From the NCBI GenBank assembly GCA_951406725.2, contig OX597815.1, positions 43,710,001 through 43,774,000 on the forward strand: a stretch of 64,000 nt of DNA, in the 5' to 3' direction. The position numbers and the translations under genes were made by a program. This DNA comes from Octopus vulgaris. Lineage: Eukaryota. The first letter of the stretch is position 1. Each line of letters opens with the position of its first letter. Of the stretch, positions 38,479 to 52,624 are shown one piece after another. The notes below the pieces were generated by a model. It did not search any database. It saw nothing but the letters and a program-made list of their open reading frames with translations, and was not told the DNA's origin.

Positions 38479-39827
38479 GAAAATTAGCATGATTTCATTA
38501 TAATACATCTAAAAATCTATTTTAATACTTGAAAATATCAACTTGAATTTCTAAATTTCAGTTTACAACCCGACGCAGAATTTTAAGCAGTGAGCCAACA
38601 AGAGAATATCTACATAGTTATCTCTATCAGTCTTAAATGAACTGACAGAAATAGCAGCTAAATTTCCACTAAATCGCAACATTTTGTTTTAATAAATTGA
38701 AGTATACTTGAGATAATACAGTCCTTAGCATACAAAATTTATGATAGTTACCAATAAAAGGTTTTTAATGAATTACTTTAACCGAACAAAGATAGGCTGG
38801 GGCTAAACAATAAAATACCTAGCCGTCTTAATGAAGAGCACATAAACACATATCATCAACTCCAGAGTTTCAATACATAGCGGAAATATCCCACAATGCC
38901 ATACAAGAAGTGGTACTAAGATTTTGAATACTTGCTCGTGTTACAGAGAAATTTCGAGCCACTGATATTAAAACCTGCAAAACCCTCAACTGGATACACG
39001 CAAAAATAGTGACACTGATAGGCATCCTCGAAATAGAATGTAGGAAGACGGAGATTAACATTCATTAAAACGGCCTTATAATGTCGCATGCTATCACATA
39101 TCGCACAAAATTCGCTAAGTAACATAGAATAAAAACAAATACAAATGATCAAAAGTGAGACCAATATTCACATGTTAAGAGCGAACATCTTACGAGGCTC
39201 TCCCATCGACGTTTCATATCAGTAGAACACCTCGAGTAGGCAATGTAATTGATTAGCTCCCTTCCCCTAAAATTGCTGGTCTTTTGCCCAACTTTGAAAC
39301 GATTGTTTAGCTACAGGTCAAGCCTATAGCCAAAATTCTATCTGTGAACATACTATTTTTCTTATATGATGTATCTCAGATTACTTTATCTGATGTATTC
39401 TTCCCTTTTAAAGCTAGTAAGCATATCTTTGTATCTGTGACACGTTGTTTGTCTCTCGTAACCTAACAGTTTGGCAAAGGACACCGATAGAATAAGTACA
39501 AGATAAGGACCGGAGTCCTTATCTGGTATTTTAAATTTTGATGTTATTTAGTGGGTGGAACGACAATGTAGATATTTTCTTATTGGCTCGTCAATTAGGT
39601 TGTTACTATCAAAATTTTATGTGAGATAAAACTAAAATAAAACTGAGATTTTGAGACACGACTTTGACGTTATTTAATAGTCATTATTTACGGAGATGTA
39701 CTTGCATAGCGAGTGACTTGATCTGAGATCGTGTGCTGGAACGGAAACAATTGCAGCGTGGAAGGTGTTTATAAGCCATTTAAGAAATACACAAAACCGT
39801 TAGATTCACTTCAACATTTAAATTTAA

Positions 39828-39878
39828 TTTGTCAAAATATGTTCGTCGCTTTGAGACCGCGACCTGTTCACTGACAAA
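39828..39878 (-). ncRNA. Hammerhead-like motif with G3-C8 core, copy 1
   Basis: Minus strand uuuguca-GUGAACA-g-gucgc ggucucaaa gcgac-GAA-cauauu-u-ugacaaa; 7-bp stem I, 5-bp stem II; A15.1 is C in this copy. Confidence 0.6.
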
Positions 39879-41479
39879 ACTTCGTACAGGGAACCAATTC
39901 TAGTGATTATCTTTTATTTATTTCAGTCGTTGGACTGCAGGCATGTTTGAGGCGCCGCCTTGAAGAAATTTGGTCAAACAAATCGACCCCGGTCCTTATC
40001 TTGTACTTATTCTATCGGTGTCCTTTGCCAAACTGTTAAGTTACGAGAGACCAACACCGGTAGTCAACAAACAAGGTGTCACAGATACAAAGATATGCTC
40101 ATATATACACGGTGGGAGTCCGCACAATTTCTGTCAAACAAATTCACTAACAAGTCATTGATTGGCTGGTCGGGGGCTATAGTAGAAGACACTTGCCCAA
40201 GGTGCTGCACAGTGGGACTGAACCCAAAACCAAAAGCTTGCAAGCGAGCTTCTAAACCACACAGCCATGCCTGCGCCTAATAATACATTTTGACTGAATA
40301 CCACTGCGTATCCCCATTCTAAAATATTTTGGATCCCATTATTATTTATAAGAGTTCATCTCTGCCATCTTTGTCCATACAAAAGAGCTTCTACGTAGTC
40401 GCTCGACTCATTAGAAACGGCAGTCAAATCTCTTTCAAGGTACACATCAAGCGACTTACAGAGAATGCTCAAGGCAATCTCACTCAAAAGATAAAATGTC
40501 ACGACTGGAATAAGAATTGATAGACTTGCGGTTAAATAACAATAACAATAATAAAGTGGAATTAGTCTGCTTTTATTTCAACTAATTTTCAAAACAACAA
40601 ATTACAGTTGACAGGAAATTTTAGCAGAAGGTTTTAATTCAGATCACTTCAAAACAGGAAGTTTGTAGCACGGAACAAGGCGCGGTCGCTATCGAGTTGC
40701 TATCAAATGTATAACTGTGTTCACATACTAGTAGAGGCTAACTTCATTCTAGTTATGACCCTCCTGAGTTTATTAAGTGCATACTTTCTTTAAAATATCG
40801 AATTGAACTTTAGATCTCAAGATTAAACACAATAGAATATTATATCATTCAGTTATCAACAACATAAAAAAAAATCCTTAAAGTTCAAATATCAGTTATG
40901 TTAAATACTATAAGCAAATTAAGGCGGCAGGCTGGCAGAATCGTTAGCACGTATACCGTGCTAATGATTTCACGTTCTGAGTTCTAATTCCGCCCAGGCT
41001 GACTTTGCCTGCCTTTATCCTTTCGGGGTGAATAAACTAAGTATCAGTTGAATCCTGGGATCGCTGTAATCAGCTTACCCACTTCCTTGAAATTGCTGGC
41101 CTGTTACCCAAATTTAAAATCATTGTACAGCAAGCCAAGGCGGCAAAGTTGACAGGATTGTTAAAACGTCGGTAAAAATGCTTCATGGTATTTCGTGAGA
41201 TTCATTATGCTCTGAATTCAAATTTCGCCAAGGTTGATTTTATTTTTCATCTTAATCAATAAAATAAGTACCAGTCGAAGTAATCGACTAACCCTTTTCC
41301 CTTGTGTCAAAATTTGAAGCTATTGTATGCCAAACTAGAATAATTTATCACTAAGTCTCCGAAAGATAAACTATTTGTTCGTATGTTTTTAAAAAATAAC
41401 CTCATCTTTTGTCGTTTTAATTATGCATTTTAAACATGACATCGCTATGTTATTTGAATAAATAAATAAGTAAATAAAT

Positions 41480-50732: not shown

Positions 50733-51526
50733 GACAGGCTTCTTTCAGTTTCCGTCTACCAAATCCACTCACAAGGCATTGGTCGGCCCGGGGCTATAGC
50801 AGAAGACACTTGCCCAAGATGCCACGCAGTGGGACGGAACCATATGGCTGGTTAGCAAGCTACTTACCACACAGCCACTCCTGCGCCTATAATGTAAATT
50901 CAATTTGATTTACTAAATTTGTCTGTGGTTATTTCTTCACATTCTGTTTGCTGACTAGAAGCCTCTAACCTGTGTTGCACATTCTGTTAAGGAATGCATG
51001 TATGTCACAAATTCCAGTTCCAGCTCATGAAATAAATTATGCGAACACAAAGAACGAAGAAATTATCTCCGACTGATTTATAACTGATATTAATAATAGT
51101 AATAATAACCAAGGAGTGGCTGTGTGGTAAGTGGCTTGCTTATCAACTACATGGTTCCGGATTCAGTCCCACTGCGTGGCACCTTGGGCAAATGTCTTCT
51201 ACTATAGCCTCAGGCCGACCAACGCATTGTGAATGGATTTGGTAGACGGAACCTGAAAGAAGCGCGTCGTGTATATGTATATATATATGTGTGTGTGTGT
51301 GTGTTTGTGTGTCTGTGTTTGTCCCCCAACATCGCTTGACAACCGATGCTGGTGTGTTTGCGTCCCTGTAACTTAGCGGTTCAGCAAAAAAAAGCCGATA
51401 GAATAAGTACTATGATTGCAAAGAATAAGTCCTGGGATCGGTTTCTTCGACTAAAGGCGGTGCTCCAGCATGGCCGCAGTCAGATGGCTGAAACAAGTAA
51501 AGAGTAAGAGTATATATATATATACG

Positions 51527-51561
<35 letters not shown>

Positions 51562-52162
51562 TTGTCCCCCAACATCGCTTGACAACCGATACTGGTGTGT
51601 TTACGATCCCAGTAACTTAGCGGTTCCGCAAAAGATACCGATAGAATAAGTACTAGTCTTACAAAGAATAAGTCCTGGGGTCGATTTGCTCGTCTAAAAG
51701 CGGTGCTCCAGTATGGCCGCTGTCAAATGACTGAAACAAGTAAAAGTTTAAAAGAAAAATATCCCGAACCAAACTGGACGTAGATAACAACAGAAATCAC
51801 TTAAGTAAATTGGAAGCCATCTGGTGTTGATAAAATGCCAAATGTCTGTTTGAAGTGGGCGTAAACAAAGGCTTACAAAGAAATGCCCAGTGAGACGGAA
51901 ATAAGTTCGAAACTATTCATTAATTTTACTATACAAACTGTATATTTCCAATAAATAGTTTAATGACAACTAAAACAAGAACAAACAATGTATATATATA
52001 ACAATTGCAGCGGGGAAGGTGTTTATAAGCCATTTGAGAAACACACAAAAACCGTTAGATTCACTTCAACATTTAAATTTAATTTGTCAAAATATTTTCG
52101 TCGCTTTGAGACCGTGACCTGTTCACTGACAAAGCTTCAAGTACATCTCCGTAATATATATA

Positions 52163-52210
<48 letters not shown>

Positions 52211-52427
52211 CATACTCTTTTACTTGTTTCAGTCATTTGACTGCGGCCATGCTGGAGCACCGCCTTTAGTCGAACAAAGCGACCCCGGGACTTATTCTTT
52301 GTAAGCCTAGTACTTATTCTATCAGTCTCTTTTGCTGAACCGCTAAGTGACGGGGACGTAAACACACCAGCATCGGTTGTCAAGCAATGCTAGAGGGACA
52401 AACACAGACACTCAAACATATACACAC

Positions 52428-52460
<33 letters not shown>

Positions 52461-52624
52461 CATACATATATACGACATTTCGCTTTCAGTTTCCGTCTAC
52501 CAAATCCACTCACAAGGCTTTGGTCGGCCCGATGCTATAGCAGAAGACACTTGCCCAAGATGCCACGCAGTGGGACTGAACCCGGAACCATGTGGTTGGT
52601 TAGCAAGCTACTTACCACACAGCC

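Follow-up and report, generated by a model that had tools for sequence, protein, structure and literature searches.

The window, that is, the whole 64,000-nucleotide stretch of Octopus vulgaris DNA analysed here, contains two copies of a dispersed repeat, each of which carries a hammerhead motif on the minus strand (52083..52133 in copy 1 and 39828..39878 in copy 2). Read from 5' to 3', stem I (7 bp) is followed in both motifs by GUGAACA, a single additional G and stem II (5 bp, closing pair G10.1-C11.1), then by GAA, the palindrome AAUAUU and U17. Direct reading of the letters bears out the minus-strand layout that an earlier note had proposed for both copies, as well as its observation that core positions 3 and 8 are exchanged in each of them, with G3 and C8 at 52126 and 52121 in copy 1 and at 39871 and 39866 in copy 2. 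The palindrome of copy 1 spans 52096-52091, with the predicted cut between 52090 and 52089; the predicted cut in copy 2 lies between 39835 and 39834. Each motif also carries one defect, an A-C mismatch in stem II of copy 1 (52115/52103) and the substitution A15.1C in copy 2 (39841). Both defects had been described as private to one copy, which holds for A15.1C (1 of 182 copies of the repeat) but not for the stem II mismatch, a recurrent variant (32/182) that was counted in 33/200 copies compared with 9-15/200 for neighbouring CpG transitions.

Both window copies belong to a G3-C8 repeat of about 207 bp, hereafter family G. They have 146 bp in common at 94% identity, in agreement with the shared repeat of about 145 bp reported earlier, but the full element is longer than that estimate. 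The body of copy 1 (52000..52138, minus strand) is tail-less and terminates at the first of two alternative 3' ends. Its 5' side is abutted by an inverted 16-nt piece of the end of the element's 3' tail (52139..52154, plus strand), an inverted arm of the type seen in Penelope-like elements (PLEs), and next to the copy lies a (TA)n microsatellite (52155..52214, no strand assigned), the likely insertion target. Copy 2 (39688..39885, minus strand) bears the optional 3' tail of about 55 nt (39688..39745, minus strand), which is homologous to the tails of two PLE families, S and Y, described below. Microsatellites and several SINE-like dispersed repeats of about 240 bp crowd the window (51500-52600 and elsewhere), and both hammerhead copies adjoin such repeats.

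The nucleotide G8 is treated as an invariant part of the catalytic core, and hammerhead searches fix CUGANGA, at most adding UUGANAA. As the earlier note had anticipated, the CUGANGA pattern cannot match the family G core, and Rfam also misses the motif: the window has no match that reaches the gathering score, and an intact copy matched none of the hammerhead families at E <= 10. A strict descriptor that allows any Watson-Crick 3-8 pair matches an intact copy (L011) but none of the 20,000 sequences obtained from that copy by dinucleotide shuffling, and yields no match in 60 shuffled windows; it misses both window copies because each carries one defect. Folding z-scores are modest (-0.5 for copy 1, -2.2 for copy 2 and -2.5 for an intact copy). 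These scores and the lack of an Rfam match would fit an accidental resemblance, with a chance hairpin in a MITE- or SINE-like element, and a six-base similarity between the element ends, together with the TA flanks, could mimic terminal inverted repeats. We regard this reading as extremely improbable: it is opposed by the shuffled-sequence result, by the occurrence of two different 3' ends and of inverted arms truncated to varying extents, and by the homology presented below.

Family G is abundant in the genome. Exact 20-mer searches with C or G allowed at positions 3 and 8 returned 6,523 matches in 2.8 Gb (227 contigs; control 0), and among the first 100 matches listed, 97 were G3/C8, two G3/G8, one C3/C8 and none C3/G8. 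Sequences with both positions changed had only 46 matches in the genome (control 5), three of which belong to the different family S. A C3/G8 subfamily within family G was not found; of seven C3/G8 matches, two were fetched and both are family S. From the fetched loci we extracted 272 arms, out of many thousands in the genome, in a sample enriched for the tail. Among the 75 arms that span the motif in loci picked by the 3' tail rather than by the hammerhead, G3/C8 is found in 66, the complete set of 11 core nucleotides in 54 and U17 in all 75, and 36 satisfy a structural test that covers the core, the stems and the palindrome. The literal core C3-U-G-A-N-G8-A is not matched by family G, the majority state being G3/C8, but the majority base at every other core column fits a hammerhead (U4, G5, A6, A9, G12-A14, A15.1-U16.1, H17), and stems I and II, G10.1-C11.1, the extra nucleotide after A9 and a short palindromic stem III are all present. 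The majority sequence of the genome copies therefore has the complete hammerhead fold, with G3-C8, as proposed earlier for the family consensus; copies diverge from it by a median of 4.8% (213 arms). Twenty listed sequencing runs under four organism labels contain 75-88% of sampled family G words, and the family is therefore common to related species.

Within family G, loop II is variable at 6 of 9 positions compared with 2 of 42 in the core and stems (p = 1e-4). However, conservation of the core and stems does not exceed that of the downstream sequence (2/42 against 9/137 variable positions; p = 0.73, computed on 10/137). G3/G8 copies make up 5 of the 75 arms and occupy different haplotypes of the family, which leaves a distinct G3/G8 subfamily, as an evolutionary intermediate, unsupported. 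The underlying change, C8G, recurs in about 6% of copies and is commoner than other transversions (L005, L014, L031, L100, L110, L177, L195, L196).

The anatomy of the element is that of a PLE. The 3' ends cluster at positions 151-153 (76/272 arms) and 205-207 (136/272, in a tail-enriched sample), and these two ends, about 55 nt apart, delimit an optional 3' tail. Copies are found on both strands in 49 of 69 tail-selected loci, usually as a near-complete arm placed head-to-head with an inverted arm that is truncated to a variable extent, flanked by (TA)n or AT-rich sequence. Tails, inverted arms and a microsatellite bias have been described for PLEs (PMC8557442), and the tail of an Anolis element marks two internal start sites of reverse transcription (PMC11167929). 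The 5' ends of the family G copies cluster upstream of the hammerhead, with 35 of the 71 copies that bear a tail beginning at positions 1-12 and none at the predicted cut site (position 63). From this distribution we infer that the template was uncut RNA.

Tandem arrays are represented by one locus among 30, the remainder being solo insertions or inverted pairs. This locus (L029:650-2357) is a head-to-tail array of about seven element units of about 170 bp, split by (TA)n, which would put hammerheads in tandem on one transcript. Such an array would be in accord with a non-LTR retrozyme that spreads via tandem units and circular RNA after double self-cleavage. We consider this reading very improbable, given that solo insertions and head-to-head inverted pairs, with PLE tails, account for most of the family and that copies are not permuted at the cut site.

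Among the fetched loci (272 arms), no ORF-bearing copy that could represent an autonomous G3-C8 parent was found. Several leads to a parent were rejected: 16 copies with G/C after the tail have unrelated flanks, except for one duplicated pair; five copies in longer open frames have frames that run into microsatellite or flank; GIY-YIG loci carry other hammerheads; and the RT-positive loci examined in the homologous clade have S- or Y-type ends. A 30-codon frame at the 3' end of the element has no Pfam match, and we attach no meaning to it.

The search for relatives of family G led to elements with coding capacity. Family S (2,607 first-look candidates) has the motif CUGAAGA, with the same extra G, an A-U pair in stem II as opposed to G-C in family G, and the near-palindrome AGAUUU; upstream of its pseudo-LTR lies a decayed RT and GIY-YIG-like frame. 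The family S protein retrieved the young family Y, which has open frames of up to 1,199 aa. The upstream ORFs of family Y show weak matches to RVT_1 and GIY-YIG (E about 9e-4, below curated cut-offs), and its protein matches a Neptune-type PLE protein at E 7e-12. Family G aligns to the S and Y pseudo-LTRs with scores above 500 of 500 shuffles, whether the full length is aligned or only the part that follows the hammerhead. Under stricter scoring, the score is reached by 0/500 shuffles for a tail-bearing S copy and by 5 and 18 of 500 for Y copies, and that for a tail-less S copy is not significant. With Neptune-type pseudo-LTRs as negative homology controls, 227/500 and 7/500 shuffles reach the scores, the second value being borderline. 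Through S and Y, family G is accordingly homologous to the pseudo-LTR of an element encoding RT and GIY-YIG, with weaker evidence for Y under strict scoring. Since both families carry canonical hammerheads, this homology largely refutes the accidental resemblance discussed above.

With anchors that avoid positions 3 and 8, the 3-8 pair is C-G in 21 of 25 family S copies and in 22 of 23 family Y copies. Position 17 is mostly C in family S. In the young family Y, 22 of 23 copies carry C9, which indicates that the clade tolerates core changes; one older copy (L302, among L274-L309) retains A9. An older G3-C8 family, G2, came to light with a short-loop pattern that itself required G3 and C8. By our count, N7 is other than A in 46 of 78 matches to this pattern, most of them with a different loop, and the shorter palindrome AAUU is followed by U17 in 8 of 14 matches; 5 of 6 fetched G2 copies are homologous downstream of the hammerhead. 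Because family G has G3-C8 while related repeats keep C3-G8, the G3-C8 motif is likely, judging from these sequences, to be a natural variant of the hammerhead core that is missed by standard searches.

A separate feature of these families is that the RT and GIY-YIG frames are offset by -1 at an A-rich stretch in 16 of 16 scored Y loci (for example, L297:983-3357, minus strand); two of three family S loci also show a frame offset between the two domains. This offset is possibly a programmed frameshift or a mutation shared through the master copy.

We examined covariation in an alignment of 16 motifs (7 from family G, 6 from S and 3 from Y), which represent three lineages rather than 16 independent rows. 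Eight of 14 pairs change on both sides, namely 3-8, one pair in stem II, four in stem I and two in the palindrome, as opposed to 0-4 in slid controls, and none of 500 shuffles reaches this count; with only three lineages, the count is not a formal significance test. To this extent the helices covary. The 3-8 pair is Watson-Crick in all 16 rows, G-C in family G and C-G in the homologous families, in accord with the claim that the G3-C8 swap is compensatory relative to S and Y. In family S the register of stem I pairing is shifted, and 76% of the stem I cells are paired. Stem II is nearly invariant across the families, and G5, A6, G12-A14 and U16.1 are invariant in the alignment.

Covarying pairs could also be expected without chemistry, if the hammerhead fold were retained as a non-catalytic structure, for instance, as a binding site or folding signal for the PLE protein. 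The near-invariance of stem II, its stability (pairing probability 0.9) and the uncut templates would fit such a role. However, in established hammerhead structures the 3-8 pair is a feature of the catalytically active conformation (PMC3884650), and the covariation at 3-8 therefore points to the active fold; the invariant G5, A6, G12-A14 and U16.1 speak in the same direction. We consider retention as a purely structural signal distinctly unlikely.

Changes of the 3-8 pair extend beyond the clade of family G. In the same genome, an unrelated Neptune-type PLE family has U3-A8 in 25 of 25 copies, and a further family, with a weaker motif and a 2-bp stem II, has A3-U8 in 20 of 20; a Watson-Crick 3-8 pair is the majority state in every family examined. 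The U3-A8 family (L067-L075, L137, L156) has intact RT and GIY-YIG ORFs of 781 aa and a long upstream frame, and its hammerhead, with the palindrome ACAUGU, lies near the 3' end. The A3-U8 motif, with the palindrome ACCGGU, C17 and a 2-bp stem II, is located in the 3' UTR of a Neptune-type PLE family with 1,431 first-look candidates (L081:2047-2085, plus strand; L207-L231). No natural A3-U8 hammerhead was found in the literature searched. Canonical C3-G8 minimal hammerheads with ACGU or AGUACU palindromes occur in other families (L139, minus; L142, plus; L277, minus; L064, plus).

We further considered whether family G RNA could cleave. In the energy model, two monomers have -26.4 kcal/mol and a double-hammerhead fold -27.0, and the value falls to -28.8 when stem III is open; by this measure the dimer helix, suggested earlier as a possible route to cleavage, is marginal and brings no gain. 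The pairing probability of stem I in the whole element is about 0.4, and an additional wobble pair, G3-U17, is present in the fold of the short motif. Three RNA-seq runs under a related species label (about 6% of each run sampled) yielded 1,098-1,448 reads on both strands, with no pile-up of read ends anywhere on the element, including the predicted cut site; because the libraries were fragmented and the sample is this small, the reads are uninformative about cleavage. Joints in these reads are mostly between opposite strands. No RNA run containing family G words was among the sequencing runs listed. On the intact element (L011:1470-1715), A>G and T>C are the commonest read differences, seen in one run at 23 and 19 places. 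Edited double-stranded RNA of inverted pairs would give this pattern; differences between copies or species are the alternative.

The presence of U17 could be viewed as an adaptation that avoids a G3-C17 pair, and an unshown result mentioned in one study holds that G3-C8 works better without C17 (PMC3884650). This suggestion is plausible but we do not count it, because U17 is common in PLE hammerheads, where it occurs in about 24 of the 56 rows of a published alignment by our own count (PMC4209133), and is present in family Y.

Nucleotide 8 is reported to act through its 2'-OH, held in place by the 3-8 pair (PMC8495972, PMC3884650). Family G shares its swap with the engineered double mutant C3G/G8C, for which partial rescue of cleavage or strong positive epistasis has been described (PMC11167929, PMC9901934, PMC8495972, PMC3884650): the rescue is partial in PMC8495972 and PMC3884650, as it is for a PLE hammerhead that requires protein (PMC11167929), and in a deep scan C3G/G8C is the only double mutant that rescues the core (PMC9901934). 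Those are laboratory mutants, whereas the swap in family G is the natural majority state of thousands of copies. Minimal PLE hammerheads are themselves described as cleaving weakly and as dimers (PMC4209133, PMC6765202).

An inactive hammerhead has to be weighed against these considerations. The motif of family G could be a dead relic, homologous to the ribozymes of related families, in which the swap became fixed, either in a master copy long ago or through drift, and is now carried along passively, since PLEs can be copied without cleavage. Several observations are in line with this possibility: the copies trace back to an uncut template, variants with G3/G8 or with the stem II mismatch recur, young family Y carries A9C, the motif is not conserved in excess within family G, and hammerhead mutants are reported not to impair insertion in vitro (PMC11167929). 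On the other hand, two transversions restore exactly the 3-8 pair, which persisted in G2 and G as other features (N7, loop II, length of the palindrome) changed, and a Watson-Crick pair prevails at these positions in all the families examined. On balance, we deem the relic rather unlikely.

Taken together, the results suggest that family G is probably a short element of high copy number, likely non-autonomous and related by homology to the pseudo-LTR of a PLE clade, which carries the minimal type I hammerhead of this clade swapped to G3-C8 and is predicted to be a slow ribozyme dependent on a dimer or on protein. Under this model, the RT-endonuclease of a PLE would act in trans and nick AT-rich DNA, and reverse transcription would start at one of two internal sites about 55 nt apart, giving rise to the two 3' ends. 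Uncut RNA would be copied as far as a constant 5' boundary located 10-18 nt before stem I, and cleavage would not be required for making a copy. The swap would have arisen once in an ancestral master and been retained through at least two families, G2 and then G. By preserving the tertiary pair through which the 2'-OH of nucleotide 8 is held in position, G3-C8 may permit slow cleavage after UUU, either by two RNAs paired via AAUAUU or with the help of a PLE protein.

On sequence homology, the motif belongs to the PLE-associated minimal type I hammerheads, a connection that the earlier note had missed. This is a described class (PMC4209133), of which an extra nucleotide and a palindromic stem III are typical features within pseudo-LTRs (PMC4209133). 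Family G resembles the members described by Cervera and de la Pena in 2014 in its pseudo-LTR location, the extra nucleotide between A9 and G10.1, the G10.1-C11.1 pair, the short palindromic stem III, the commonness of U17 and the predominance of solitary copies and head-to-head pairs, but differs in its core, GUGAACA (PMC4209133). By our count, the 56-row PLE alignment in that work has 53 C3-G8, two U3-A8, one U3-G8 and no G3-C8 rows (PMC4209133). The U3-A8 pair, reported by Perreault et al. in 2011 (PMC3088659) and present in a Schistosoma PLE family (PMC4209133), is likewise a natural compensatory 3-8 change; however, it involves two transitions and keeps a purine at position 8, whereas G3-C8 involves two transversions and places a pyrimidine there. 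The Anolis Poseidon element PAc is similar to family G in its two 3' ends that define a tail, AT-rich targets, uncut RNA template and pseudo-LTR hammerhead, but is described as autonomous, with a canonical core and a tail of 30-40 nt, in contrast to the tail of about 55 nt and the lack of an ORF-bearing copy among those of family G that were fetched (PMC11167929). Non-LTR retrozymes are also short, non-coding, PLE-derived and hammerhead-bearing, but are defined as tandem units (bioRxiv 10.64898/2026.07.22.740005), whereas family G consists mainly of solo or inverted-pair insertions. In the full-text literature searched, we found G3-C8 hammerheads only as engineered variants and none that is natural.

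A natural G3-C8 family with thousands of copies, found beside homologous C3-G8 families, is evolutionary evidence that the pair is conserved rather than the bases, and implies that whole families are missed by ribozyme censuses. More tentatively, and with some doubt on our part, the comparison of these families raises the prospect that G3-C8 is an active natural hammerhead and that the PLE hammerheads of a single animal genome use all four Watson-Crick 3-8 pairs (C-G, U-A, G-C and A-U). If true, descriptors that fix the core would systematically undercount genomic hammerheads, and some of the PLE clades reported to be without hammerheads may carry swapped cores. The natural series of C-G, G-C, U-A and A-U pairs, together with the A9C core of family Y, provides material to ask whether cleavage maintains PLE hammerheads.
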